Assembly (NCBI GenBank): GCA_963708045.1
Contig: OY970181.1
Location: 515,740-579,739, forward strand
Length of the DNA: 64,000 nt
Source of the DNA: an uncultured bacterium
Lineage (GTDB): Bacteria; Patescibacteriota; Patescibacteriia; CAIQCM01
Direction: 5' to 3'
The notes beneath the pieces are model-generated. The model saw only the letters and a list, made by a program, of their open reading frames with translations, had not been told where the DNA came from and did not search any database. Positions 5,001 to 61,308 of the stretch are shown in pieces; positions within the stretch are counted from its first letter, which is position 1; every line of letters begins with the position of its first letter. The translations under genes and the position numbers were made by a program.

Positions 5001-5085
5001 AGTTGTTTATTATAACGCATTATCAAAGTTTGGGCACGTAATTATTAACTTTTAACTGTTAACTGTTAACTTTTTGGAAAATAAC

Positions 5086-5757: not shown

Positions 5758-7110
5758 ATGGAAATTAGTCCAAAAATATTCAAATCCTACGATATTCGCG
5801 GTTTGGCCAATAGTGAAATAAACGAAAAGAATGCCGAACTAATCGGTCGCGCTCTTGTGGAGTATTCGGAGGCAGAGCGGGTTCTTGTTGCACGCGATAT
5901 GCGTCTTTCTTCGCCGTCACTGCTTCGTGCTCTTGAGCGCGGGATAAATGCTTCTGGCGCTGACGTAATTGATATTGGTCTGGCTTCAAACCCGCTTTTT
6001 TATTTTGCCGTATCCGAAGAATTCCGCGATGGGAAAAAGGGTGCGGGCGTTAATGTTACTGCCTCGCATAATCCCAAAGAATATAACGGCTTTAAACTTG
6101 TTCACGAAGACGGTTCGCCGATTGGCGAAGGCGCGGGAATGGAAGCGATCCGCGATCTCGTGCTGGCTCAGAAATTTGACAATCATAAGCCGGGGAAAAT
6201 TAGCGAGAAAGATTTGCTTAAAAAATATATTGAACGCATTCTCTCGTTGGTTCCCAAAGAAGCGGTGGGCGAGCGACGTGTGGTTTTTGACGCGGGTAAT
6301 GGTATGGCCGGCATTACGCTTCCTGCTTTTATTCGCGCCTACGGGATTCAGAATGAAAATTTATTTTTTGATCTTAACGGCAATTTCCCAAACCATACGC
6401 CCAACCCCGTGCAAGAAGAAACGCTTGGCGCTCTAAAAAATATGGTTTTGCAAACGCACTCGGAGCTTGGTGTGTCTTTTGATGGCGACGCTGACCGGGT
6501 TGGGTTTGTTGATGAGCGTGGCGTTTTTGTACACGGCGACATTATGACAGCGTTTATCGCTAAAGAAATGTTGCGGCGAAGTCCGGGGAGCTGGATTGTG
6601 ACGACAATTCAGGCGAGCTTGATTGTGGGCGAAACTGTTTCCGCCGCCCATGGGAAATTAGAGACCGTCCGTGTCGGCAGTCCGTTTTTAAAATACGCGA
6701 TGCGTAAGTCGGGTGCGGTTTTTGGCGGCGAGCTTTCTATGCACTTTGTATTTCGCGAAATGAATTATTTGGAAGCGCCGGAACTGGCTGTAGCGATTGT
6801 TCTGGCCGCAATAAATCGTGAGAAAAAACCTTTTTCCGAATTAATTCGGCCACTCATTAAGTACCACAAGACCGCCGAAATTAATTTTCCCGTTAAAGAC
6901 AAGGTCGCCACACTTGCTGCTTTGGAGAAAAAATATTCCGACGGCAAAGTTAATCATTTGGACGGCGTGCGAATTGATTATCCCTCGTGGTGGTTTTCGG
7001 TTCGTGTTTCTAATACCGAACCCGTCATCCGCCTAAACCTTGAAGCCAATACGGAAGAAGAAAAGAACTCGCGCCTCGCGGAGGTAATGGAAATTATAAA
7101 AAACTTTTAA
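5758..7110 (+). CDS. phosphomannomutase/phosphoglucomutase (alpha-D-phosphohexomutase family)
   Basis: FKSYDIRG N-terminal motif; active-site TASHNP; four-domain length. The ORF track starts at 5719, but ATG 5758 (MEISPKIF) is the likely start. Confidence 0.85.
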   Translation: MEISPKIFKSYDIRGLANSEINEKNAELIGRALVEYSEAERVLVARDMRLSSPSLLRALERGINASGADVIDIGLASNPLFYFAVSEEFRDGKKGAGVNVTASHNPKEYNGFKLVHEDGSPIGEGAGMEAIRDLVLAQKFDNHKPGKISEKDLLKKYIERILSLVPKEAVGERRVVFDAGNGMAGITLPAFIRAYGIQNENLFFDLNGNFPNHTPNPVQEETLGALKNMVLQTHSELGVSFDGDADRVGFVDERGVFVHGDIMTAFIAKEMLRRSPGSWIVTTIQASLIVGETVSAAHGKLETVRVGSPFLKYAMRKSGAVFGGELSMHFVFREMNYLEAPELAVAIVLAAINREKKPFSELIRPLIKYHKTAEINFPVKDKVATLAALEKKYSDGKVNHLDGVRIDYPSWWFSVRVSNTEPVIRLNLEANTEEEKNSRLAEVMEIIKNF

Positions 7111-7167
7111 CTTTTAACTTTTAACTATTAGGAAAGACCTAAAAGTTAACAGTTAACAGTTAACAGT
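7103..7167. repeat. heptamer-repeat palindrome: (AACTTTT)x3, spacer, (GTTAACA)x3
   Basis: Tandem 7-mers overlap the phosphohexomutase stop, and the inverse array ends 7 nt before the murI ATG. Confidence 0.8.
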
Positions 7168-7173
7168 TCGGCA

Positions 7174-9076: not shown

Positions 9077-9167
9077 CATATACCATGAACCACGTACCAT
9101 GTACCATCCACCAAGGAGTAGTTAATGGTTTGTTTTCAATGGTTCATGGTTCATGGTGCATGGTTCA
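9077..9167. repeat. heptamer-repeat palindrome: (CATGWAC)x5, AAGGAG-containing centre, (TGGTTCA)x4 ending 9 nt before the pheS ATG
   Basis: Left array 9077-9111, right array 9140-9167; the right array is in sense orientation immediately upstream of pheS, which has no SD. Confidence 0.8.
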
Positions 9168-9176
9168 TAAATAAAT

Positions 9177-13651: not shown

Positions 13652-13687
13652 TTATCCACACGCCAAAGAGTGGTATAATAAATAACT

Positions 13688-14001: not shown

Positions 14002-14028
14002 CAAGGCGTCTATTTTTTCGGATTAGAT
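14002..14028 (+). terminator. intrinsic terminator hairpin (aaatagacgcc aa ggcgtctattt)
   Basis: 11-bp stem plus a T6 run; followed by 4 tandem heptamers ATTAGAY at 14032-14059. Confidence 0.7.
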
Positions 14029-14112
14029 ATTAGTCATTAGACATTAGATATTCAACAGGGTAATGTATACCAATTATTCCTCCATCCCCACGGGCTATAA
14101 GCCATCAGCCAT

Positions 14113-17100
14113 ATGCCAAGGTTTGTCCACCTCCACGTCCACACTCATTACTCGCTTTTGGACGGTTTAACGCAAATTGATCCGCTTATTGCCAAGGTCA
14201 AAGAACACGGCATGGATGCCGTGGCGATAACCGACCATGGGGCAATGTATGGCGCGATAGAATTTTATTTGGCGTGCAAGAAAAAGGAAATCAAGCCGCT
14301 CATTGGAATGGAAGCGTACGTGGCGCCTAAGTCGCGTTTTGAAAAGTCTGGTCGCGGCGGCGAAAATGACACTTCGCATTTAACGCTCATTGCGAAAAAT
14401 ATTACCGGCTATCGCAATTTGATGAAGCTTGCGACCAAAGCTTCGCTTGAAGGATTTTATTATAAACCTAGAGTTGACCACGAACTCCTTGCCGAATTTG
14501 GCGAGGGGATTGTCGCACTTTCGGGCTGTATGAATGGCGAGGTTCCCAAGGCGATTCTTGGCGGCGATCTTTCGCGCGCGCGCGACCTTGTCAAAAGATA
14601 CAAAAGTTATTTTGGCGAAAATTTTTTTCTGGAGATTCAATATCACCCGACGGTTTCGGAACAAGAAATCGCCAACCAAGGGCTTTATAAATTGTCGCAG
14701 GAATTCGGCATTCCGCTCGTCGCGACCCAAGACTCGCATTATCTTAATCCTGACGACAACGAAGCGCAGGATATTTTGGTTTGCGTGCAGACGGGGAAAA
14801 CGGTAGACGATCCGAAGCGTTTGGATATGCGCGGGATGGACGTCAGCTTTCCCTCGGGCGCGATTATGGAAGAAAACTTTCGCGCCTATCCCGGGTCTTG
14901 TGAAATGACCGGCAAGATCGCCGACCTCGTTGATTTACAGTTGGACTTGGGTAAGTGGGTATTTCCGGCCTTTACGCCGCCGGGCGGACTGTCGGCTAAA
15001 GATTATTTGGACAAACATTCGCACGAAATGTTGGACGCGAAATATGGCGGCAAAGCGCCCAAGGAAGTCGTTGACCGTTTGGAATACGAACTGGGAATTA
15101 TTTCTAAAAAAGGTTATGACCCTTATTTCCTTGTCGTTGCCGACTACACCAACTGGGCGCGGTCAAAGGGAATTGTTTCAACCACTCGCGGTTCGGCCGC
15201 CGGTTCGCTCGTGTCTTATGTAATCGGAATTTCCCAAATCAATCCGTTATTTTTTAAATTGCCTTTTGAACGTTTTTTAAACCCGTTCCGTCCGTCGCCA
15301 CCGGATATTGATATGGACTTTGCCGACAACCGCCGCGAAGAAGTTTTGGAATACGTCAAAGAAAAATATGGTGCCGACAAGGTCGCGCAGATCTGCACTT
15401 TTGGAACAATGCAGGCGCGTGCCGCGGTTCGCGATGTCACTCGCGCGCTCGGACTTCCTTACGCCTTTGGCGATCGCGTGGCAAAATTGATTCCGCAGGG
15501 CGCACAGGGTTTTCCAATGACAATTGACCGGGCAATAGAAGAAACACCCGAGCTCAAAGAGTTGGTTAGTCGCGACCCCGACGCCAAGCGCGTCATTGAT
15601 CTCGCAGAAAAAGTTGAAGGCTGTGTTCGCCACTCGTCGGTGCACGCCGCCGGTGTTGTAATCGCGCCGTCACCCTTAACCGATTTTACGCCGCTTCAAA
15701 AAGAATCCGGCGGCGGCGACAAAATTATCACCCAATACGATATGAACGCGGTGGAGCTTTCGGGCACGCTCAAGATGGACTTTCTCGGCATCAGAAACTT
15801 GTCCATTCTCGGTAACGCCATTTTTCTCGTTAAACAGACCAAAGGCATTGACGTTGATTTGGTGAATTTGCCACTTGAAGACAAAAAAACTTTTGAAATG
15901 CTTAGCCGCGGCGAAACTTTTGGCGTTTTCCAACTTTCTGGCGACGGGATGACGCGATATTTAAAAGAGTTGCATCCAACGACGATTTTTGATCTTCAGG
16001 CGATGGTCGCGCTTTATCGCCCGGGCCCGATTGACTCCATTCCGGAATATATTGCGCGTAAAAATGATCCCAAGAAGATTTCGTATCTTGATCCGCGAAT
16101 GAAAGAAATTTTGGATCAGTCGCATGGCGTTATTACATATCAAGACGACGTCCTGCTTATTTCCATCATTCTCGCCGGTTACAGCTGGGAAGAGGCTGAC
16201 AAATTTAGAAAAGCGATGGGCAAAAAGATTCCCGAGGAGATGGCCAAACAAAAGGAAAAATTTTGGAAGGGGATTGTCGCGAATGGCGGCAACGAAAAAT
16301 TGGCTGGCGATCTTTGGAAACTGATTGAACCATTCGCCGCCTACGGTTTTAACAAGGCGCACGCCGCTTCGTACGCGACGGTTGCTTTTGAAACCGCGTA
16401 TATGAAGGCTCATTATCCGGCCGAATATATGACGGCGATTATGACCGCCGAGTCCGATGATTTGGAAAAAGTCGCCGAAGCGGTTACCGAGTGCGGCCGG
16501 ATGGGGGTTTCGGTTTTGCCGCCCGACGTTGGCACTTCGTTTAAGGATTTTACCTACATTGACGACACACACGTTCGTTTCGGATTGCTCGCAATAAAAA
16601 ATATTGGTTCGGACACAGTGGAAAATATTATTGCCGAGCGAAAAAAGAACGGTCCCTTTGTGTCGCTTGAAGATTTTTTAACGCGTCTAGAAGCAAAGTC
16701 GGTTAATCATAAGTCGCTAGAAAGTTTGATCAAGTCGGGCGCGATGGATTCTTTTGGCGAACGCGAAGCGTTACTTGAAGCGATTCCGCAGATGCTGGTT
16801 TTTGCGCGTGAAAATCAAAAAGCGGCGGCGAGCTCGCAGTCTTCACTTTTTGGCGCGATGACACTTCCAGACGCGACGATTCGTCTGCTTCAGAATACTC
16901 AGCCCAACAAGGCCGATCGGCTGGCTTGGGAAAAAGAATTACTCGGTCTTTATGTTTCCGAGCATCCTTGGAAACAATGGGAGACGGTGTTTGCTGGCGT
17001 AACCACGAAAATCTCGGACGCGCTCGCGCTTACCGAAGGGACACTCACGATTGTTGGGGGAGTGATTGCTACCGCCAAAAAGATTTTGACCAAAAAAAAT

Positions 17101-30203: not shown

Positions 30204-30210
30204 GTTTTTA

Positions 30211-30291
30211 TGAAACATGAATCATGAAACATCCTCGCCGCGCTTTGCGCGGCCAAAATGATCCATGTTGTGTGCTTCATGCTTCATTATA
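30211..30291. repeat. heptamer array (TGAAWCA)x3, GC hairpin 30237-30253, degenerate inverse array, between rplA and dut
   Basis: Same architecture as the other loci; the rplA stop is at 30295. Confidence 0.7.
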
Positions 30292-30294
30292 TCA

Positions 30295-30975: not shown

Positions 30976-31251
30976 ATTTTTTTATGGACCATGAACTATG
31001 GACCATGAACAATTATTTCGAGGCTCGGCCTCGAGGCTGAGCCTCGAAGATTTGCCGGTGAATTAAAGAAACGGACCGCCATGGGTCCGTCTTTGGATCT
31101 CATGACGTGGTATTAGCGAGCCGATGGACATCGGCTCTCCCACATCCGTTATGGCAATATATTAGCCCAAAGCCGTATTTTTGGCAAGTCTACCGTCATC
31201 CCAGCGATAAGCTGGGATCCAGTGATTCCTCGCAATGACAAAAACACCGCA

Positions 31252-45347: not shown

Positions 45348-46367
45348 ATGTCGCTTAAAATTATTTTTGATTTTTTAAAAAAACATTGGATCAAGTTGTC
45401 GTTTGTCGGGGGAATCTTGCTCATCGTCGTTTCACTCGCGGCTATCTTTTTTATTTTTGGCGAAAGAAAAACGGAAATTGGAAATATAACCAATGCAAAA
45501 AATGAGCCGTTGCCTTCGGCGCCAGGGGTAAAAAATTGGGTTGACCTTTATGCAGTTTCCATAGACAACCACGTTAATGCGCGTCCGGTTTCTGGATTAA
45601 ACAATGCGGAATTTGTCATTGAAGCGCCAGTTGAGGGTGGAATAAGTCGCTTCCTAGCTTTTTTTGAACGCGGAAAATCGGTTTCCGAAATTGGGCCGGT
45701 TCGCTCGGCGCGCCCATATTTTTTGGATTGGGTAATGGGCGCGGGGCCAGCGCTATTTATTCATATCGGCGGCTCGCCCGAGGCGATGGCGCGAATTGCG
45801 GCGGATCCGGTTTTGCTTGTGACTAACGCCGATGGCATTGGTGCGGCTGGCGTTTATTTTTCACGCGATTTGTCGCGTGAAGCCCCGCACAACGCCTATG
45901 TTTCTTCAAAAGACATAGAGACATTATTTTTTAAACGCAGTCCGACGCCGCGCTCGGTTGCGGGCTGGAATTTTGTTGTCGCGCCCGAAGCTTTAAAATT
46001 GGGGAGTGCTGGCGAGATAAAAATAAAATTTGGCGATCCTGCAAATAGCGTCGTTTGGAATTTTGACAAAGAGAAAAATATCTACTTGCGTTCTTCGGGC
46101 GGCAAAGCCGACAAAACGAGAGATGGGGAGGTGATTAGCGCGAAAAACATCGCCATAATTTATACCGAAGTTAAGTCAATTGATAGCGAAGACCGAAAAA
46201 AAATTCAGACAACCGGCGAAGGCACGGCTAAGGTTTACGTAAATGGAAATGAGATTGGTGGAACATGGAAAAGCGACGGCAAATCCTTGCCACGTTTTTA
46301 CGATTCTTTTGGCAACGAAATTATTTTTACCGAGGGGAATGTGTGGGTTGAGGTAATTGGCACGTAG
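45348..46367 (+). CDS. DUF3048 domain protein (YerB-like), membrane anchored
   Basis: SIDNHVNARPVSGLNNAEFVIEAPVEGGISRFLAFF matches the DUF3048 N-terminal core; N-terminal TM. Confidence 0.65.
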   Translation: MSLKIIFDFLKKHWIKLSFVGGILLIVVSLAAIFFIFGERKTEIGNITNAKNEPLPSAPGVKNWVDLYAVSIDNHVNARPVSGLNNAEFVIEAPVEGGISRFLAFFERGKSVSEIGPVRSARPYFLDWVMGAGPALFIHIGGSPEAMARIAADPVLLVTNADGIGAAGVYFSRDLSREAPHNAYVSSKDIETLFFKRSPTPRSVAGWNFVVAPEALKLGSAGEIKIKFGDPANSVVWNFDKEKNIYLRSSGGKADKTRDGEVISAKNIAIIYTEVKSIDSEDRKKIQTTGEGTAKVYVNGNEIGGTWKSDGKSLPRFYDSFGNEIIFTEGNVWVEVIGT

Positions 46368-46555
46368 CGCGTAGCACGTAGCACGTAGCGCGTGGCGCGT
46401 AGCACGTAGCACGTGGCGCGTAGCACGTAGCACGTGGCGCGTAGCACGTAGCACGTGGCGCGTAGCACGTAGCACGTGGTTTTAAAAAACAGGCTAAAGC
46501 CTGTTTTTTTCGTTTTCTACGTGCCACGTGCTACGTGCTACGCGCCATTTGGCTA
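46366..46555. repeat. 17 tandem heptamers GCRCGTR (119 bp, 21-bp super-period), terminator hairpin 46484-46509, inverse array (CYACGYG)x4-5
   Basis: Direct reading; not CRISPR because there are no spacers; convergent gene ends (DUF3048 + / prmC -). Confidence 0.9.
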
Positions 46556-47398
46556 TGTGCCAAAAAGGGCGATGCGGGGCAGGTTGGCAAGATCATTTTT
46601 TATTTCTACCATTGCGGTGGGGAAGTGGCGTTTGGCTAATTTGGGAAACGAGCTTTTTTGCGATGGGTCTATTTCACAAATAATTATGCCAGTTATTCCG
46701 CGCGCGACAATTTGGTGGAATAATTCATCGTAATATTTTAGTCCGTCCTTGCCGCCCGTGAGGGCGGTTTTTGGTTCAAAATTTTTTACGTCGGGCGGGC
46801 ATTTTTGCCAAACCCTGGTTGGTAAATAGGGGAGATTGGCGACAATAATCGCTGGTGCGTTAATTTTGATTTTTTTTGGCAGCAAGTTGGTACGTTCAAA
46901 AATTATTTTATCTTGCACGTCATTTAGCGCGGCGTTTTCTTTTGCGATTTTTAGGGCGGCTTTTGAAATGTCAGTGGCGACGACTGTTGCGCTTGGGTAA
47001 TTTTTAGCAACGGCGATCGCGATAGCGCCACTGCCGGTTCCGACGTCAATAAACGGCACGTAGCACGTAGTACGTAGTACGTTGATGGCTTCCTCCACTA
47101 GCATTTCCGTCTCTGGGCGGGGGATGAGGGTGTGTTTGTTTACAAAAAATGGCAGGCTAAAAAATTCCTTAATTCCGACGATGTAGGCGACTGGTTCGTG
47201 CTTGGCGCGGCGGGCGAGAAAGGTATGATATTTTTTTGCGGCCAAGCTTGGCATTGCGCGGTCGTCGTGCGTAAGCAGTTCTTCACGGGTAATGCCAAGC
47301 GCATGCGCAAGTAAAATTTCAGCGTCAATAGCCGCTGATTCTTTTGAAGCGCGACGGAGTTTTTTTATGCCGAAAATTTTTGCTTCTTTTATTGTCAT
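46553..47398 (-). CDS. prmC: release factor glutamine N5-methyltransferase PrmC/HemK
   Basis: SAM motif IDVGTGSGAIAIA; substrate motif present as NLPY (variant of NPPY); downstream of prfA. Confidence 0.8.
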   Translation of the reverse strand: MTIKEAKIFGIKKLRRASKESAAIDAEILLAHALGITREELLTHDDRAMPSLAAKKYHTFLARRAKHEPVAYIVGIKEFFSLPFFVNKHTLIPRPETEMLVEEAINVLRTTCYVPFIDVGTGSGAIAIAVAKNYPSATVVATDISKAALKIAKENAALNDVQDKIIFERTNLLPKKIKINAPAIIVANLPYLPTRVWQKCPPDVKNFEPKTALTGGKDGLKYYDELFHQIVARGITGIIICEIDPSQKSSFPKLAKRHFPTAMVEIKNDLANLPRIALFGT

Positions 47399-47403
47399 TG
47401 TTT

Positions 47404-47504
47404 GTTGGTAGAGATTAGAAATTAGATTTTAGAAGCTGGTAGCTCGTCTTCTAATTTCAAATCTCTAATCTCTAATCTCAAATTCACATTCTAATTCTAA
47501 AATA
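47404..47504. repeat. heptamer palindrome: (GARATTA-like)x3, centre, (TCTMAWY)x8, starting 6 nt upstream of the prmC ATG
   Basis: gagatta gaaatta gatttta ... cttctaa tttcaaa tctctaa tctctaa tctcaaa ttcacat tctaatt ctaaaat. Confidence 0.8.
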
Positions 47505-47755
47505 AAAGAGCCCCCGACGAAAGAGGCGACGTTTAACAAGGGGAGGGGGGTCTTGTTACGCACTCAATTCCGTCGGGGGAGAAAATAGGGGGCCTTGGAG
47601 TGGTTAGCTAGCGACGCTGCTGCTACAACGCGTTTTGCCTATGCAACCTTGGGCTAAAGATGGAGGTTCGGGACACCCAGGAAACCCGATAAAACCATCG
47701 TAAGCGTTTGGCGCATCCACTCCAAAGCCAAGACAAGAAAGAACGTCTAATTAAC

Positions 47756-48820
<1,065 letters not shown>

Positions 48821-48840
48821 AAAGTCATTGTAACATTAAA

Positions 48841-48931
48841 TGAAACATGAACCATGTACCACGTACCATGAACCATGAACCACGAACCACGAAACATGTA
48901 CCACGAAACACGTACCATGAAACATGTATAA
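48841..48931. repeat. 13 tandem heptamers (YGWAMCA; sense-strand reading TGKTWCR) filling the prfA upstream region
   Basis: tgaaaca tgaacca tgtacca cgtacca tgaacca tgaacca cgaacca cgaaaca tgtacca cgaaaca cgtacca tgaaaca tgtataa. Confidence 0.9.
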
Positions 48932-48940
48932 ATAGAATAC

Positions 48941-48970
48941 AAAAACAGCACCAATTAAGGCGCTGTTTTT
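48941..48970 (-). terminator. terminator hairpin downstream of rpmE (aaaaacagc ... gctgttttt)
   Basis: 9-bp stem, 12-nt loop, A/T flanks. Confidence 0.6.
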
Positions 48971-48977
48971 GGAATAG

Positions 48978-52347: not shown

Positions 52348-52351
52348 CCGA

Positions 52352-52447
52352 ACTGTTAACTTTTAACCTTTAACTTTTAGTTAGAAAATATCTCCGTCAC
52401 ATCGGAGATATTTTAATTCGCCAAAAGTTAAAAGTTAACAGTTAAAA
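52352..52447. repeat. heptamer palindrome: (AACTKTT)x4, terminator hairpin 52385-52414, (AAAAGTT/AACAGTT)x4
   Basis: Same GTTAACA-type family as 5045-5070 and 7103-7167. Confidence 0.85.
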
Positions 52448-52484
52448 GTTAGTTAAAATTTGCATCTATGCTACAATTTAATAA

Positions 52485-53042
52485 ATGCTGACCGAACTTG
52501 CGAATGAAAAAGAGTTGGCTGAACGGGCGACGAAAGACGGTGACGCTTTTGCCGCGCTTTACGATTTTTATTTTCCAAAAATTTGGGCGTACACGATTAG
52601 GCGCGTCGGACACACGGAAACGGCTGAAGATATTGTTTCACAAATATTTTTAAAAATTACCGAAGCTTTGCCGCGCCGAAAAAATAACGCGCCCTTTGGC
52701 GCTTGGGTTTTTCGGATCGCTACAAATACAATCATTGATCATTATCGGGCAAGTGGTCGGCACCGTGAAGAAGAAATCGTTGCCGCGGAAAATATTCCCG
52801 AACGCGGTTTAGCTCCTGACGAATTTTCCGAGGCTAGGCTCGTGTTTAGAGAAATAGAAACAATCCTCGGCGAACTTCCCGAGCGCGACCGACGCATTGT
52901 TCACCTTAAATTTTTTGCCGGCTTAAGTAACGGTGAAATCGCCGTAACGGAAAAAACTAAAGAGGGGAATATAGCAATAATTGTTCATCGGGCGCTTCAA
53001 AAAATACGTAAACAGAGCAAATTTTATGGAAAACTTGAATAA
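52485..53042 (+). CDS. ECF-subfamily RNA polymerase sigma-70 factor
   Basis: Region 2 (YDFYFPKIWAYTIRRVG...AEDIVSQIFLKI) and region 4 HTH (LPERDRRIVHLKFFAGLSNGEIA); TACAAT box 7 nt before the ATG. Confidence 0.85.
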   Translation: MLTELANEKELAERATKDGDAFAALYDFYFPKIWAYTIRRVGHTETAEDIVSQIFLKITEALPRRKNNAPFGAWVFRIATNTIIDHYRASGRHREEEIVAAENIPERGLAPDEFSEARLVFREIETILGELPERDRRIVHLKFFAGLSNGEIAVTEKTKEGNIAIIVHRALQKIRKQSKFYGKLE

Positions 53043-56000
53043 TCAAGACGAAAAAAACTTAAATAGCGAAGAGGTAAAGCGTAATGAAAACACTGGCGGA
53101 GCGTTGGAAGAGATGGAGAGCAAAATCTCCATGCTTATCAACCATAATAATACGGACGCCTCAGACAAATTCCGCGAATCGTTAAAAACGCGGGTACTTG
53201 AGGCGCACGCCAAAAATAATATGCCTCGTTTTTCCGGCTTTAAGAATTTGATCGGATTTTTTTCCGCTCGCCGCTTTTCGTTTGCCATAACGATCGTTCT
53301 CTTGCTCGCGGTCGTCGGCGGTGTTTTGCTTAATGGTTATTTTGGCGGACGCGAACGGAGTATTGCTAAAATTTTTATTAATCCCGCCTACGCCGCCGAC
53401 GACTTTTCACTTGTCTCGCTTGCGGCTGATTCCGCCGGTGTTACTCCCGATTCGGTCTACAAACTCACAAGCAAAGAATCGTTTTCCACGGCCGACATTA
53501 AAGCTGGACTAAGTCTGACGCCAACGATGGAGGTCGGTGTCAAACAAACAGCGGATAAAGAATGGATGATTACGCCGAGTGAAAAATTGCCAGCCAATTC
53601 GCTTTTAAAAATTGCCCTTGCCGCGGCAATAAACGACAACGGAACAATCACGACGCGCGATTTTTCTTGGGCGTTTCAAGTTAAAGATCATTTCCGCGTT
53701 CTTAATTCGCTTCCTGGGAACGCGGCAACCTCGGTCCCGGTGAATACGGGTATAGAAGTAACTTTTAGCCATCCAAACTTAAATGGCTATGAAAAATATT
53801 TTGCCATTAGTCCCGAAGTTAAAGGACGTTTTGAATATCACGCCCGCACCGCCGTTTTTGTGCCAACCGAACCACTCAAGGCTGGTGAGCTTTATACGGT
53901 GACCATTGGCGCTGATCTGGTACTAACCGAATCCACCGAAAAATTGGGCGAAGATTATAAATTTAGTTTTGAAACGGCTAAAGAAACCAAAGACGCTGGC
54001 GGTTATGAAAATTGGTTTGGCGTTAATGAAAAAATGGTGCAATTCAGTTCCGACGAAAGTCCGTTCATTGGTGTTTATGGCGACACCAAGGCGCAAACCA
54101 CGGCTAATGTATATTCGTTTTCTTCGGCCGACGCTTTTCTTGCGGGTATAAATGAACGCAATAAATATCCGCGCTGGACGGAAAAATGGAATAATTATCA
54201 CTATGATGTTTCGGGGCTTGCCAAAGTCACGTCGTTTACGCCAAAAATTGAAACGCAAAATTACGCCAACTTCTTTGTTTTCCCGTCAAAATTGCCGATT
54301 GGTTTTTATCTCACCGAAGTCGCGTATCAAAACAAAACTTTCCAAGTCTGGATGCAGGTGAATGATTTAAACGTTTTTTACAACATTGATATTAACCACA
54401 CGCTGGTTTGGGTAAACCGGATTGGTGGCGTTTCGCCGGCTACCGAGGCGACGGTTTCGGTCGGTGATTTGGTACAAAATGTAAAAACGGACGCTAGTGG
54501 CGTGGCAACGTTTGATATTCCGGCGGCGTATCAAGATGCCAAAAGCAAATATGCCGACCAGCCGCTTTATCTAATTGTTCGCGCGGGCGCCTCAACGATG
54601 ATTACTGATTTTTATCCCGGCGGGAAAACAGCCGCCAGTCGTTGGTCATATTTTTATACCGACCGCCCGCGCTATCAATCAACCGATACGATTCATTTTT
54701 TTGCGATGACTCGGGATCGCGCGAGCGGCATCGCCTCGCCCGGAAAATACTCGGTAATTCTCCGCAAATCCGGTTGGTACGATTATTATTACAACCCGGT
54801 AAAAATTGTTGAAACCGAAGTTGCGCCGGACGCCTACGGCACAATGACGGGCGCGCTTTCGCTTGCCGATTTGCGCCCCGACTACTATGAAGTCGCGCTT
54901 ACGCTTGACGGCGAAACAATTGCGACAAGCTGGGTAAATGTTCTCCCTTATACCAAACCGGCCTACTCAATTTCGGTAACTAACGACCGCGCCGCGGCCT
55001 TCTCGGGCGAACAGATAAATTTTACCGCGACGGCGAAATTTTTTGACGACACGCCGGCCGCCGGAATTAAAATGAAGGTCGTAGACGAATTAGGGATAAA
55101 GATTGGCTCTTTCACGACCGACGAACAAGGACAAATAACTTTTTCTTCAACCCAAGATTACGACGGAACAAAATATTGGCCGCAATGGAAGTATTTTACC
55201 GTTAGTCCAGAGTCGTCGGAGCTTGGCGACATTAGCGGCTCGGCAAACGGCGCTTGGTACGGTCCGCGCGTTTACGGAACAAGCGAAGTTAAGTATCCGG
55301 AAAAAGGCCGCGCCGAATTAAAGATCAAAGTTCGTAACGTTGATATTAACAAAATTAATTTCCCAAATAACGTGCAATGGGATGAAGATTGGCAAGGGTC
55401 GGATCCGGCTGCGGGCATAAATATTTCTGGCGAAGTAATAAAGATTACTTACAACAAGGTTGAAACTGGTACAGCTTATGACTTCATCAACAAAACGTCT
55501 TATAAAACTTATCGTTACGATCGGGTGGAAACAAAAGTTGACACGCTTTCGCTTGTAACTGGCGCGGACGGTATGGCGCGTTACAGTCGCGCGGTTGAAC
55601 CGAACACTTTTTACAACATAAATTATAAAATCAGCGACGCGGCGCATCGCACCGAAGCGCACAACGACGGCTTCTATTATTATGACGGCAATACTTATTA
55701 TCGCGATTATTTCTCTTACGGGGAAAATGCGCAACCGACAATTGAATTTAACACGAGCGACCGTCTGTATTCGCTCGGCGACAAGGTTAAAGCGACGCTT
55801 TCGCTTAACGCTAAGCCGGTTTCCATGGCGCAAACTGACCGCATTCTTTTTGCCAAATACCAAAACGGTCTAAAGAGCTTTGTGGTGCAAGGGAGCCCAG
55901 TTTATGAATTTAATTTTTCCGAAAGCGATGTTCCTAACGTTCAGCTTTTTGCCGCCTGGTGGGATGGAAAAAATTATCACACGGCGCGAACCGACGGCTG

Positions 56001-58620
56001 GTGGGGGATGAGCGACGGCGGCGCGAAATATAAATATACTGATCGCGAACTCACGATTGACGCCGCTTTTGATAAAACGACGTATGCGCCAGGGAGCGAC
56101 GCTAAATTTTCAGTAACGGTTAAAGACAAGAATGGTCGTCCGGTCGCCGCCGCTCTAAATCTTAATTTGGTTGACGAAGCGTATTACGCGATTGCGAATA
56201 GCTCGGCAAATCCGCTCCAAAGCATCTACACGCCGCAATATTCGGGAATCATTGATTCGGCGGAAACGCAAGAACCGCCGCCTTCGGCCACGGCCGGCGG
56301 TGCGGAACGTGGTGGCTGTTTTGCCCCTGGCACGATGATTACGATGGCTGATGGTAGCAAAAAGGCGATTGAAAAAGTTAAAGTTGGCGACAAGGTGGCG
56401 ACACTCGCGAATCCGCTTAACGCCGATGTTGTAACAGGAACAGTTGGCGCGGTTTTTGAGCATACCGCGAATAAAATGATTTCCGTTAACAACGGACTTC
56501 TCAAGGCTACACCCGAACATATGATCTATGCGAGCGGCACTTTTAAAACCGCTGGCGAAATTGCGGTTGGAGATGTACTCCTTGGACTTAACGGGAAAAA
56601 GACGGTTGTCACTTCGGTTAAAGTTGTTTTTGAAAAAATTTCCGTCTACAATTTGCGTGTTGATCCATATCACACCTTTATTGCAAACGGTATCTATGTT
56701 CACAATGACAAGGACGGCGCCGTGCGTCAGAACTTTGTTGATGTCGCGCTTTTTCGCACGGTCACAACCGATAGCGCAGGCAAAGCGACAGTTGACTTTA
56801 AGTTGCCGGATAACGTTACTTCTTGGCGGCTTACGACACAGGCGATTGGTGCTAATCTTTCAGTCGGAATGTCCACACAAAAAATAAAAACCACCTTGCC
56901 GGCTTTTGTTGACGTTACCATTGGTAAGGATTATCTCGTAGGCGATCAGGTTGTTGCTAAACTGCGTTCGTTTGGTACGAACCTTACAGCCACGGACGCG
57001 GTTTCTTACGCTGTTACTTCGGAAGGGCTTGGCAACGCCTCATTTTCTTTTGCAACCGAAGGCAAAGCGTACCGTCCGACCGAAGTTAATCTGCCACCGC
57101 TCACATCGGGAAATTTCAACGTTACCTATTCAATGAAAAGCCAAAAAGGAAATGACGCCGTGCTTTTGCCGCTAAACGTTTCCAAGTCGTTTTTGCGGAT
57201 CAATAAAATCCTTTCATCCACTGATGTTTCGCCCGGGGTAAAGTTTTCTGCGCCTGGCGCAACTGACTCCGTAAAAATTACTTTTGCCGACGCGAGTTCA
57301 ATGAAATTATATCGGCCGCTTTCGGAACTTAGCTGGAGTTGGGGAAAACGCGTTGACCAAACGCTCGCGCATTCGCTTGCCGCCGATTTGCTTCTTAAAT
57401 ACTTTAAAGAAGATTGGCACGAAAATACTTTTGACGGCAGCGCGTATCAGCAAGCTGATGGCGGCATCGCGATTTTGCCTTACGGTTCTTCGGATATGGA
57501 TCTTTCGGCGCGTCTCGCGGCTTTAGCGCCGGAAAAATTTAGCGTCTCGGCGTTACGTCAATATTTTATGGCGGAAATTGATTCCAAGAATGCGACGCCC
57601 GAGACGGTGACTAACGCGCTTTTGGGTTTGGCGTCGCTCGGTGATCCGGTTTTGCCGCGGTTAGAGCTCTGGAAAGATAGAACTGATCTGACAATAGAAA
57701 GCCGCATGCGCGTTGCTCTCGCTCTTTACAAGGTCGGCGCGAACGAAGATGCGCGGATGATTTATAACGATGTGCTAAAGAGCGGCGAAAGTCGCGGTGC
57801 GTATTATCTCTTGTCCGGCAAAGACGAGAACGAAACATTACTGCGCACGGCCTTTTTGGGCGAACTTGCGGCCGCGCTTAATATGCCGGAACGCGACGCG
57901 CTCTGGGCTTACGTTACTGATCATAAATATGATAAAAAAATTGAAGTCCTGACCAACCTTGAAGATTTGTCGTTTGTTATGTTGGCTATCCCAACACTTA
58001 CGCCCGGTCCCTCTAAAGTCGCTTACGAACTTAAGGGAATGAAAAATGAAATTGATCTGAATGGCTGGGGTCAAAAAGTAATCAGACTTCAGGCGTCGGA
58101 ACTTGATAAATTGAACATCACCTCGGTGGAAGGAAAAATCAGCGCGGCGGTTTCTGCGGATGCTTCTATCACCGAAGTTGATCTGGTCGCGAACAAGGAC
58201 GTTTCCATTACCCGATCATATTCGGTGGTCGGCGGCGCCGATAATACAACCGACTTTAAGGACAATGATATTATTCGTGTGACGATTGACGTAAAAATTT
58301 CGCGCAATTCGCCGAGTCGTAATTATCAGGTGACGGACATTCTTCCGGCTGGCTTAATTTCGGCGACAAATGTTTATGACGCGTATCGTCCTTATGACAA
58401 CTATTGGAGCAACCCGTTTGATGTAAACGGCCAGCTTGTTTCCTTTAATGTTTGGAAGTACGGCGATCCGGATAAATATGGAAATTATTCGGAGACGATT
58501 CATTATTACGCCCGAGTAAAAACAAAAGGCAGTTACAAGGCCGAGCCGGCGATTATTCAGGCCTTTTCTGACCCAGGAACGATTAATTATTCTTCGGCTG
58601 GAATCGTAACCGTTAAATGA
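53026..58620 (+). CDS. anti-sigma-like giant membrane protein with alpha-2-macroglobulin-like MG domains and an internal Hint domain
   Basis: ATG 53026 overlaps the sigma gene by 17 nt (the track starts at TTG 52981); ~85-aa cytoplasmic N-region then one TM helix (FAITIVLLLAVVGGVLL); YFYTDRPRYQSTDTIHFFAMTRD resembles the A2M MG-domain motif TDRPIYRPGxTVHF; Hint domain at nt 56317-56706; ends with TGA. Confidence 0.55.
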   Translation: MENLNNQDEKNLNSEEVKRNENTGGALEEMESKISMLINHNNTDASDKFRESLKTRVLEAHAKNNMPRFSGFKNLIGFFSARRFSFAITIVLLLAVVGGVLLNGYFGGRERSIAKIFINPAYAADDFSLVSLAADSAGVTPDSVYKLTSKESFSTADIKAGLSLTPTMEVGVKQTADKEWMITPSEKLPANSLLKIALAAAINDNGTITTRDFSWAFQVKDHFRVLNSLPGNAATSVPVNTGIEVTFSHPNLNGYEKYFAISPEVKGRFEYHARTAVFVPTEPLKAGELYTVTIGADLVLTESTEKLGEDYKFSFETAKETKDAGGYENWFGVNEKMVQFSSDESPFIGVYGDTKAQTTANVYSFSSADAFLAGINERNKYPRWTEKWNNYHYDVSGLAKVTSFTPKIETQNYANFFVFPSKLPIGFYLTEVAYQNKTFQVWMQVNDLNVFYNIDINHTLVWVNRIGGVSPATEATVSVGDLVQNVKTDASGVATFDIPAAYQDAKSKYADQPLYLIVRAGASTMITDFYPGGKTAASRWSYFYTDRPRYQSTDTIHFFAMTRDRASGIASPGKYSVILRKSGWYDYYYNPVKIVETEVAPDAYGTMTGALSLADLRPDYYEVALTLDGETIATSWVNVLPYTKPAYSISVTNDRAAAFSGEQINFTATAKFFDDTPAAGIKMKVVDELGIKIGSFTTDEQGQITFSSTQDYDGTKYWPQWKYFTVSPESSELGDISGSANGAWYGPRVYGTSEVKYPEKGRAELKIKVRNVDINKINFPNNVQWDEDWQGSDPAAGINISGEVIKITYNKVETGTAYDFINKTSYKTYRYDRVETKVDTLSLVTGADGMARYSRAVEPNTFYNINYKISDAAHRTEAHNDGFYYYDGNTYYRDYFSYGENAQPTIEFNTSDRLYSLGDKVKATLSLNAKPVSMAQTDRILFAKYQNGLKSFVVQGSPVYEFNFSESDVPNVQLFAAWWDGKNYHTARTDGWWGMSDGGAKYKYTDRELTIDAAFDKTTYAPGSDAKFSVTVKDKNGRPVAAALNLNLVDEAYYAIANSSANPLQSIYTPQYSGIIDSAETQEPPPSATAGGAERGGCFAPGTMITMADGSKKAIEKVKVGDKVATLANPLNADVVTGTVGAVFEHTANKMISVNNGLLKATPEHMIYASGTFKTAGEIAVGDVLLGLNGKKTVVTSVKVVFEKISVYNLRVDPYHTFIANGIYVHNDKDGAVRQNFVDVALFRTVTTDSAGKATVDFKLPDNVTSWRLTTQAIGANLSVGMSTQKIKTTLPAFVDVTIGKDYLVGDQVVAKLRSFGTNLTATDAVSYAVTSEGLGNASFSFATEGKAYRPTEVNLPPLTSGNFNVTYSMKSQKGNDAVLLPLNVSKSFLRINKILSSTDVSPGVKFSAPGATDSVKITFADASSMKLYRPLSELSWSWGKRVDQTLAHSLAADLLLKYFKEDWHENTFDGSAYQQADGGIAILPYGSSDMDLSARLAALAPEKFSVSALRQYFMAEIDSKNATPETVTNALLGLASLGDPVLPRLELWKDRTDLTIESRMRVALALYKVGANEDARMIYNDVLKSGESRGAYYLLSGKDENETLLRTAFLGELAAALNMPERDALWAYVTDHKYDKKIEVLTNLEDLSFVMLAIPTLTPGPSKVAYELKGMKNEIDLNGWGQKVIRLQASELDKLNITSVEGKISAAVSADASITEVDLVANKDVSITRSYSVVGGADNTTDFKDNDIIRVTIDVKISRNSPSRNYQVTDILPAGLISATNVYDAYRPYDNYWSNPFDVNGQLVSFNVWKYGDPDKYGNYSETIHYYARVKTKGSYKAEPAIIQAFSDPGTINYSSAGIVTVK
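56317..56706 (+). other. Hint / mini-intein-like domain (130 aa) embedded in the giant protein
   Basis: Block A CFAPGTMITMADGS, block B TPEH, block G HTFIANGIYVHN; the residue after the terminal Asn is Asp, not Cys/Ser/Thr. Confidence 0.6.
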
Positions 58621-59513: not shown

Positions 59514-59522
59514 TGGACCATG

Positions 59523-59603
59523 TACCACGCACCATGAACCACACTAATGAGTAGTTATTGGTTTATGGTACATGGTTCATGTTTTATGGTTCATGACAAA
59601 ACG
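59523..59603. repeat. heptamer palindrome (ATGNACC)x4, centre, (TGGTWYA)x5 at the start of the rpsB upstream region
   Basis: Left array 59523-59550, right array 59569-59603. Confidence 0.8.
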
Positions 59604-59794
59604 CATCTTGCCCCAAAACAGGTTTTATAGTAAGATCATTGAATCGCCAAAAAGAGCGATTTTTTATTCAATAAATCCGTCAAATGACGGAAAAATTCCC
59701 CGCCGAATGGCGGGGCAAGCAGGCGTTGCGTCCGATGGCCTTCTCCGCGTAAGCGGGGTGCAAACGCCGGTGTTAAAAAGGTCAGACAAAAACT

Positions 59795-61168: not shown

Positions 61169-61232
61169 ACAATACTCATACTTTATTAACAAAAACCGTT
61201 CCGTTTGGGGCGGTTTTTGTGATATACTCCGA

Positions 61233-61308
61233 ATGGACAATGAACCATGAACCATGAACCATGAACCATTGACTAGTCATTGGTGCGTGGTGTGTGGTAC
61301 GTGGTTCA
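61233..61308. repeat. heptamer palindrome (ATGAACC)x5, SpeI-palindrome centre, (TGGTNNG/TGGTTCA)x4 ending 21 nt before the gap ATG
   Basis: Left array 61233-61267, right array 61281-61308; the tsf terminator hairpin at 61191-61218 precedes it. Confidence 0.85.

Follow-up and report, generated by a model that had tools for sequence, protein, structure and literature searches.

The short tandemly repeated repetitive (STRR) arrays of cyanobacteria are the classic case of heptamer repeats, going back to the work of Mazel and colleagues in 1990. The classical STRR units are CCCCAGT, TTGGTCA and CAACAGT. Heptanucleotide repeats are reported to be the commonest class of long simple sequence repeats (SSRs) in prokaryotes and are ascribed to polymerase slippage, as the work of Mrazek et al. 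(2007) is summarised in PMC4679880. The latter paper (MacGregor 2015, PMC4679880) describes direct repeats of the unit TAACTGA in marine Beggiatoaceae, some Cyanobacteria and Bacteroidetes, placed in forward orientation right before start codons that lack a Shine-Dalgarno (SD) sequence, those of ribosomal protein genes included; a translational role was hypothesised, and one of the alternatives listed was that the repeats are irrelevant and translation proceeds as for leaderless mRNAs. In the Beggiatoaceae this one unit dominates, with 169 direct sets and 1 indirect set (PMC4679880). Here we describe heptamer arrays in a 64,000-nt stretch (hereafter the window; contig OY970181.1, positions 515,740 to 579,739) from an uncultured bacterium of the Patescibacteria, or Candidate Phyla Radiation (CPR), and in particular the array that separates the genes rpmE and prfA. 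An initial annotation of the window had suggested that TGGTTCA-type arrays could be SD-independent ribosome standby or enhancer elements, tandem sites for a regulator of translation-apparatus genes, or simply the downstream halves of terminator palindromes.

In Haemophilus influenzae, the (ATCTTTC)n tract of hmw1A and hmw2A lies between promoter and start codon, is transcribed, and forms an arm of a hairpin in the 5' untranslated region (5'UTR) that is processed by RNase III (PMC12721329; PMC8262952). The TTTTGAT heptads of the Vibrio cholerae ctxAB promoter lie upstream of the core promoter, in a copy number that depends on the strain (bioRxiv 10.1101/2021.05.14.444153). Repetitive extragenic palindromic (REP) sequences, with the related bacterial interspersed mosaic elements (BIMEs) and REPINs (REP doublets forming hairpins), are imperfect palindromes in spacers at gene 3' ends, often transcribed, whose dispersed copies share sequence (PMC3116915). 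CPR genomes almost always keep RNase III, RNase J and PNPase (rnc, rnj and pnp in at least 90% of genomes; PMC12641178), so that long hairpins in their transcripts would have consequences. The literature searched contained no account of such arrays from Patescibacteria.

A regular-expression scan of the minus strand for TG-N-T-N-C-R revealed exactly 12 consecutive units (48841-48924), and Tandem Repeats Finder (TRF) reported a period-7 array of 12.4 copies at 48840-48926 with a 21-nt super-period at 48842-48919. The array reported here initially is thus real, although its size has to be corrected from 13 copies to 12 full units. Units 1-6 read TGTTTCA, TGGTACG, TGTTTCG, TGGTACA, TGTTTCG and TGGTTCG, and units 7-12 TGGTTCA, TGGTTCA, TGGTACG, TGGTACA, TGGTTCA and TGTTTCA. 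On one side, 15 A/T-rich bases separate the array from the intrinsic terminator (13-bp stem and T tail; 48940-48971, minus) of rpmE, which encodes ribosomal protein L31 (48978-49274, minus). On the other side, TTTAATGTTACAATGACTTT fills the gap to the ATG of prfA (release factor 1; 47756-48820, minus) at 48820, so that the array stands 20 nt from the start codon with an extended -10 box, TGTTACAAT (48827-48835, minus), in between, 6 nt before the ATG. The array is an orphan, with no inverted partner array, and its self-fold is weak: the hairpin predicted in the minimum free energy structure is not found in the centroid structure. Its head-to-tail units, well over three and above chance, identify it as a satellite-like simple sequence with a 7-nt unit, of the long SSR or STRR kind.

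The rpmE-prfA region was recovered, through a protein search and contig look-ups, from seven further lineages with 92% to 72% PrfA identity (eight lineages including the window); a contig scan with PrfA (up to 56% identity) and a metagenome scan with GAPDH (up to 64%) gave no orthologous spacers. The nearest named PrfA relatives, at 54-61% identity, belong to Buchananbacteria, Magasanikbacteria, Kerfeldbacteria and Moraniibacteriota (Patescibacteria). The eight lineages share orthologous prfA starts (N-terminal pattern MD-PAE-KK-RARA), and the rpmE terminator is conserved; the spacer from terminator to promoter box is hypervariable. The 12 units and TGTTACAAT-N6 of the window correspond to 4 units (TGGTACR) behind an identical terminator in L081 and L082 (92% PrfA identity; the same 4 units in two samples), followed by a weak box, TGGTACATA, also at N6. 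No array is present in L083 (74-nt spacer; TGCTATATT, N6), L175 (weak box, TGCGACGAT, N6) or L093 (TGGGATAAT, N6), and the place is taken by unrelated inserts of about 120 nt in L088 (TGCTACAAT, N6) and about 70 nt in L174 (TGCTAAACT, N6). Finally, L091 carries an inverted pair, GAACCAA x3 and TTGGTTC x3, with no N6 box and with a TGATTATAAT box in the loop. The copy number at one and the same spacer is therefore 12, 4 or 0, a turnover of the STRR type, and 5 of the 8 lineages (window, L083, L088, L174 and L093) have a clear TGnTAnnnT-type box at exactly this N6 spacing from the orthologous ATG.

With a spacing of N6, transcription would be expected to start at the A of the AUG, giving a leaderless prfA mRNA, and the conserved box between array and ATG would place the array upstream of that start. 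The most economical reading of the comparison is that the prfA mRNA is leaderless and that the prfA array lies in non-transcribed spacer. An enhancer or standby site should be found within the 5'UTR, and the prfA array would lie outside it. The 5'UTR role proposed for this array in the initial annotation is accordingly unlikely, as the relatives point to an array upstream of the promoter that is probably not transcribed, an outcome by which that annotation had itself proposed to refute the idea.

That proposal had also leaned on the absence of SD sequences from the array-bearing genes. GGAG was found within 22 nt of the start in only about 4 of the 62 genes of the window, and as about 58 of the 62 lack an SD, its absence at array genes carries no information and the supposed link fails. 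The 15 nt preceding the starts contain 39% A, 32% T and 12% G. A TAnnnT hexamer stands 5-8 nt before the ATG in about 16 genes. No more than 60 nt from a start there are 13 TGnTAnnnT boxes, of which 6 have a spacing of 6-8 nt. Start-proximal boxes occur, for example, at 13679 (TATAAT-N8-ATG), 45337, 52469-52477 and 48827-48835. At the level of sequence, these figures imply SD-less and very often leaderless initiation throughout this CPR lineage. CATAAA was likewise overrepresented, occurring no more than 25 nt upstream of six starts where about one was expected; pheS, rplA, dut and gap carry it after their arrays, and tsf (60551) and a response-regulator gene (37324) carry it without any array. 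We considered CATAAA(W) as a -10 element and rejected it, as it lacks the T at -7, is inconsistently spaced, and precedes the two latter genes without arrays.

The prfA array is one of about twenty fast-evolving heptamer arrays. In a sliding self-similarity test, the window contained 26 period-7 runs against 0-2 for each other period from 4 to 12, and first-order Markov simulations averaged 0.24 period-7 runs and never exceeded 2. Intergenic DNA makes up 9.4% of the window and holds 635 of the 719 array bases (88%), so that the arrays account for about 10% of it. Their units fall into about five families: TG-N-T-W-C-R, which covers TGGTTCA, TGTTTCA and TGGTACG; AACTTTT/AAAAGTT/AACAGTT; GCACGTA, the reverse complement of which (TGCTACG) is one base away from the first family; ATTAGAN/TCTAATN; and TTAGGTA and TTCTTAA. 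Higher-order periods of 14 and 21 nt are present. Many arrays, few unit families and a mostly intergenic position are likewise found in STRRs. The initial annotation was correct that such arrays exist, but its frame of a single TGGTTCA unit was too narrow.

All the other TGGTTCA-type arrays it had listed were recovered in mRNA sense, at pheS, rplA, dut and gap and far upstream of rpsB. The distance to the ATG is 3-9 nt for the first three of these, 21 nt for gap, and about 190 nt for rpsB. Together with prfA these are six loci, and at all six the T-rich orientation is sense and start-proximal, as had been claimed; AAAAGTT behaves likewise at three of three loci. As the six loci are divided evenly between the strands and the GC skew is positive throughout the window, array polarity follows transcription and not replication. 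This orientation favours the idea of an SD-independent standby site or enhancer, or of tandem sites bound by a regulator, such as an OB-fold protein of the cold-shock or S1 type that covers 6-7 nt, as does the presence of the unit at 4 of about 14 translation-related genes and at 2 of about 48 others; a parallel proposal exists for the TAACTGA repeats of the SD-poor Beggiatoaceae (PMC4679880). However, SD-less starts are the rule here, thrS, pheT, gatB, miaA, rpmE, the L25 gene, nusG and tsf lack such an array, and CATAAA near the start also occurs at genes without arrays. Moreover, the prfA and rpsB arrays stand upstream of conserved promoters, the orthologous genes of relatives, with their prfA and rpsB spacers, lack arrays, and other heptamer families precede murI, dnaE, an extracytoplasmic function (ECF) sigma factor and hypothetical genes, which makes a regulon of translation genes unlikely. 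An SD replacement or a regulon is thus not supported at prfA and is weakly supported elsewhere, and we consider both ideas very improbable.

Many of the arrays form inverted pairs around a short loop or a canonical terminator (7100-7170, 9077-9168, 30207-30290, 46360-46547, 47405-47500, 52351-52451, 59514-59603 and 61232-61308). The predicted hairpins of these pairs comprise 25-45 bp at -23 to -40 kcal/mol, with -82 kcal/mol for the GCACGTA pair, and the z-scores of the predicted folds range from -4.3 to -10. Typically the left arm begins 0-10 nt after the upstream stop codon, only 5-21 nt separate the right arm from the following start, and the hairpin thus fills the spacer. No T run follows the arms or arrays, which are thus not terminators themselves; separate canonical terminators flanked by arrays are found at 48940-48971, 46484-46509 and 52388-52417. 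An oppositely oriented partner lies just upstream at four of the six TGGTTCA loci (9077-9113, 30273-30287, 59514-59541 and 61232-61273). The initial suggestion that the arrays are downstream halves of palindromes therefore applies to pheS, dut, rpsB and gap, and not to the partnerless array at prfA.

Between the rseP stop and pheS (9077-9168, plus), ACCATGN x5, a loop with GAGTAGTTAATGGTTT and ATGGTTC x4 (right array 9140-9167) form a predicted hairpin of -37.9 kcal/mol. The gap leader (61220-61308, plus) consists of a TGATATACT box (61220-61228), ATGAACC x4, a loop, four TGGTGCG/TGGTACG/TGGTTCA units (61281-61308) and 21 nt before the ATG, with a predicted fold of -39.9 kcal/mol in sense and -27.7 in antisense. 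In the dut leader (30207-30294, minus), a TGATATAAT box (30286-30294) directly after the rplA stop codon is followed by GAAGCAT units, a GC hairpin, ATGTTTC/ATGATTC units (sense array 30211-30231) and the dut start, and the predicted folds reach -39.8 kcal/mol for the sense strand and -27.7 for the antisense strand. The start of dut itself is ambiguous: the longest open reading frame begins at an ATG within the heptamer array (30218), an alternative ATG lies in frame five codons downstream (30203), after the CATAAAAAC tail, and alignment to the family profile was indecisive. At rplA there is a single array with a 14-nt period (GTTCATGGTCCATA x2; 30983-31010, minus), 8 nt before the ATG. The pair at 59514-59603 (plus; right array 59566-59603) directly follows the stop of a Memo-like gene and precedes the rpsB promoter, TTGCCC-N17-TAAGAT (59608-59636, plus).

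Hairpins of this predicted stability and placement could be selected cis-elements, and the arrays by extension functional RNA modules: in a 5'-proximal or intercistronic position they might block RNase J or PNPase, serve as RNase III processing sites, or place the upstream stop beside the following SD-less start, where a terminating ribosome could open it, their strength being tuned by copy number. The polarity that tracks transcription, the retention of the three nucleases in CPR genomes, and the precedent of the hmw tract (PMC12721329), the nearest analogue studied by experiment, would all agree with such modules. So would the TGATATA(C/A)T box that precedes the gap and dut pairs; at gap it is conserved in L088 and L091, where the order of elements is also that of the window: tsf terminator, box, [ATGAA-N-C]n array, loop or GC hairpin, inverted array, 12-21 A/T-rich bases and ATG. 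The gap arrays are thus probably part of a transcribed 5'UTR, and those of dut, downstream of a conserved-looking promoter, are probably transcribed too. On the other hand, the prfA array has no partner and would lie upstream of the transcription start, the arms lack the U-tract that terminators would need, and the orthologous gap, rpsB and prfA spacers of L174, L175 and L093 are without arrays. The gap spacer of L174 has even kept the promoter box, and the rpsB promoter and leader are conserved in L088, L091 and L174 with no arrays in those spacers.

If the sense RNA were under selection, G-U pairs should make the sense fold systematically more stable than the antisense fold. This was promising at gap and dut of the window, which are more stable in sense by about 12 kcal/mol through G-U pairs, yet the difference is about zero for the other eight pairs and reversed in relatives: -37.5 in sense against -54.8 kcal/mol in antisense at L088 gap, -24.7 against -31.2 at L091 gap, and -21.8 against -28.7 at L091 prfA-prmC. 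G-U asymmetry was therefore discarded as a sign of selection on the sense RNA, and a strand asymmetry with no consistent direction is better explained by an origin at the DNA level. In addition, the two arms of the L088 gap pair have been homogenised separately (ATGAACA x3 against GTTCATC x5), leaving a mismatch at every seventh position. Together with the super-periods, these observations fit satellite-like concerted evolution by slippage within arms and are at odds with tight selection for one particular RNA helix. We regard selected hairpin modules as a possible but rather unlikely explanation for the arrays.

The explanation that we favour, with some reservation, is that slippage has produced the prfA array as a heptanucleotide satellite, in a spacer that is dispensable and probably not transcribed. 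In its favour are the excess of period-7 runs, their super-periods, the turnover in copy number at prfA, the conserved promoter box, and the higher density of such runs in CPR-labelled loci (below). Replication slippage would make the arrays and change their size by 7, 14 or 21 nt at a time, and the units would become homogenised within each array. Mirroring of arms across a loop or an intrinsic terminator, perhaps by strand switching at the palindrome, would produce the long imperfect palindromes so often seen in these spacers. The prfA promoter would fire at or beside the AUG, yielding a leaderless mRNA without the array, which would then be no substitute for an SD but dispensable, neutral spacer DNA at most. 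Where pairs are transcribed, as they probably are at gap, dut and rseP-pheS, they would fold into hairpins of 25-35 bp with possible effects, incidental or adaptive, on the stability of the mRNA, on its processing by RNase III or on coupling.

Several observations weigh against this explanation. In L091 the TGATTATAAT box lies in the loop of the prfA pair, so that the sense array there would be transcribed. Pure neutrality does not predict a polarity that follows the gene strand at every TGGTTCA (6/6) and AAAAGTT (3/3) locus, and the arrays take up about 10% of the intergenic DNA in a streamlined genome of 1.19 Mb. The layout of promoter, array, loop and inverted array at gap is shared by three lineages at about 80% PrfA identity. 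Likewise, array pairs flank the bidirectional terminator between the convergent prmC and DUF3048 genes in two lineages with unrelated units, GCACGTA in the window and TTTTAGC/AAAAGCT in L083. Within prmC, the loop before the S-adenosylmethionine-binding DVGTGSG motif contains in-frame period-7 sequence in four lineages (window 47055-47085, minus; L088 11685-11717; L174 11576-11603; L175 11450-11482), with units that differ and a loop length that is constant. Array architecture thus recurs at the same sites with changed unit sequence, which suggests that they either persist for long or arise repeatedly at preferred sites.

A further possibility is that the hairpins are miniature mobile elements or dispersed palindromes, of the kind of REPs or miniature inverted-repeat transposable elements, whose arms happen to be heptamer arrays and which a transposase or recombination has carried to sites near terminators. 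The pheS and rpsB-upstream hairpins have a 16-nt loop core, GAGTAGTTAWTGGTTT, in common with zero mismatches, and two hairpins of L175 share the core AATGTTTYAAACATT. Unit families also recur at non-orthologous sites between genomes, as ATTAGAY does before dnaE in the window and, as ATTAGAT, before tsf in L088, and L088 encodes a Y1 transposase (Y1_Tnp, 14364-15032). Shared cores and recurring families hint at dispersal or ectopic conversion. Nevertheless, GAGTAGTTAWTGGTTT was found at the two window loci only, with one further match at 3 mismatches, at least 3 matches arose in 5 of 100 shuffles, and the core was not found in any related locus fetched. The window proteins that were scanned included no transposase, neither fixed termini nor target-site duplications were visible, and arm lengths and units vary continuously. 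Spreading as mobile palindromes therefore appears improbable to us.

We also entertained a more ambitious idea, which we judge a long shot as a whole: that the arrays act throughout the Patescibacterial lineage as a functional code with several unit families, in which each 7-nt unit is the footprint of one OB-fold protein of the cold-shock or S1 type, and that such a protein on the T-rich, start-proximal arm opens or locks the long hairpins that link a stop codon or terminator to the next SD-less or leaderless start. If true, it would gate transcription insulation, the access of RNase III, RNase J and PNPase, and how neighbouring genes are translated, the number of copies determining the gain. 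The idea would account for the polarity, the recurrence at gap and prmC/DUF3048 with different units, and an approximately 11-fold enrichment in CPR loci. This enrichment was seen in a sample of 80 loci (L001-L080) from the PrfA scan, where period-7 runs occurred at 2.18 per 10 kb in CPR-labelled loci and 0.19 per 10 kb in the others, and runs of periods 6 and 8 together at similar rates (0.66 and 0.42 per 10 kb). Diverse metagenome contigs, used as a second background, gave 0.6 period-7 runs per 10 kb, against about 4.1 in the window. Period-7 arrays are patchy across Patescibacteria, each genome having its own units. Loci rich in period 7 include L028, L031, L011, L017, L036, L045 and L068, and the prmC gene of the Moraniibacteriota locus L028 (11228-11859) holds four in-frame heptamer arrays that encode 7-residue peptide repeats.

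Further arrays of the window belong to the other unit families. Between the convergent DUF3048 and prmC genes, GCACGTA x17, with a 21-nt super-unit at 96% identity, is followed by the bidirectional terminator and the inverted CTACGTG x4 (46360-46547). A pair of AACTTTT x4 and AAAAGTT x4 encloses a canonical terminator at 52351-52451 (plus) and is followed by TGCTACAAT-N7-ATG of the ECF sigma gene. At 7100-7170 (plus), AACTTTT x4, a loop and AAAAGTT/AACAGTT x4 fill the entire spacer from a phosphoglucomutase-like gene to a racemase gene. The single AAAAGTT/AACAGTT array at 5043-5075 (minus) has a terminator on one side and a TATAAT-N8-ATG promoter on the other, the same layout of terminator, array and promoter as at prfA. 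A GATTAGA/TCTAATN inverted pair stands ahead of prmC (47405-47500, minus), and ATTAGAC x3.5 lies between a terminator and dnaE (14028-14052, plus). Dispersed palindromic inserts of other kinds were noticed in the same spacers of relatives, for example TTGCGAGGAG...CTCGCAATGACG in L088 (9860-9990) and CTCGATTCGCTC-CGCTCACTCGAA...TTCGAGCGA-AGTCGAGAATTAC in L175 (5690-5789 and 7267-7495).

No rRNA, tRNA or tmRNA gene was found in the window. Rfam gave no match at gathering threshold over the whole window and, at E values up to 1 around the arrays, only chance-level miRNA and snoRNA matches. From the prfA stop to the prmC-proximal hairpin there is a GC-rich, apparently structured spacer of about 250 nt (47500-47755, minus) with a terminator-like hairpin at its end. 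Motifs of this spacer, among them GTTGTAGCAGCAGC, are found in relatives too, with counterparts at L081 1412-1650 and L174 11051-11200. The spacer had no Rfam match even at E values up to 1 and no tmRNA call, and we regard it as a candidate for an undescribed small RNA. TCGA is nearly missing from the window, with 15 sites (among them 354, 1730, 31018, 31031 and 31044) against about 270 expected from trinucleotide frequencies (observed/expected ratio 0.06), which suggests a strong avoidance of this TaqI-type restriction site. CATG is depleted outside the arrays (observed/expected ratio 0.46), and 25 of its 84 sites are within heptamer arrays. An interpretation of the arrays in terms of restriction sites was dropped, as the concentration of CATG in them is due to the unit sequence itself, which contains it, and showed no link to function. 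Lastly, a 1864-aa alpha-2-macroglobulin-like protein (53026-58620) contains a PT-HINT or Hint-type domain at about residues 1100-1230, which is also annotated in its L083 orthologue.

Compared with the described systems, the arrays of the window resemble long SSRs and STRRs in their head-to-tail 7-nt units, their large number in few families, their strongly intergenic position, a copy number that varies between relatives, and slippage as the proposed origin. The units differ: TGGTTCA, TGGTACG, AAAAGTT, GCACGTA and ATTAGAC bear a resemblance to the classical STRR units, and none equals one of these. The host also differs, being a CPR bacterium with a genome of 1.19 Mb, as do the arrangement, mostly inverted pairs around a loop or terminator, the share of about 10% of intergenic DNA, and the additional in-frame period-7 stretches in prmC. 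If the arrays are mere satellites, they would matter mainly for annotation, with caution in the regulatory reading of start-proximal repeats, and a streamlined genome of 1.2 Mb would be seen to tolerate about 10% of repeats in its spacers; the lineage would still appear to use leaderless extended -10 promoters and almost no SD sequences. Small CPR genomes dense in hairpin-forming arrays may offer a compact system for two questions that go back to 1990, why long SSRs of bacteria prefer a period of seven and what role STRR-type repeats have.

The predicted leaders of gap and dut, with hairpins of -38 to -40 kcal/mol downstream of promoter-like boxes, are reminiscent of the hmw tract. The latter belongs to a surface-adhesin contingency locus with phase variation at the population level, whereas here the genes are essential housekeeping genes and both arms are repeat arrays. 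The array of prfA lies upstream of an inferred core promoter, a position comparable to that of the ctx heptads; the ctx repeats are AT-rich and bind known regulators, and the prfA-type array is absent in close relatives. REPs differ in not being tandem heptamers and in their link to RAYTs (REP-associated tyrosine transposases), none of which was present among the window proteins scanned. With regard to the TAACTGA repeats, that unit itself is not among the window arrays, although TAACTGT/TAACTTT arrays at 5045-5071 and 52351-52379 come near to it and are start-proximal in the opposite orientation. A forward array abutting an SD-less start is seen at pheS, rplA and dut, but not at prfA, where a promoter box parts array and ATG, nor at rpsB, and the window has several units and frequent inverted pairs instead of one dominant direct repeat. 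The arrays of the window thus extend repeats of the STRR and TAACTGA type to CPR bacteria, in a hairpin-forming version with several unit families.

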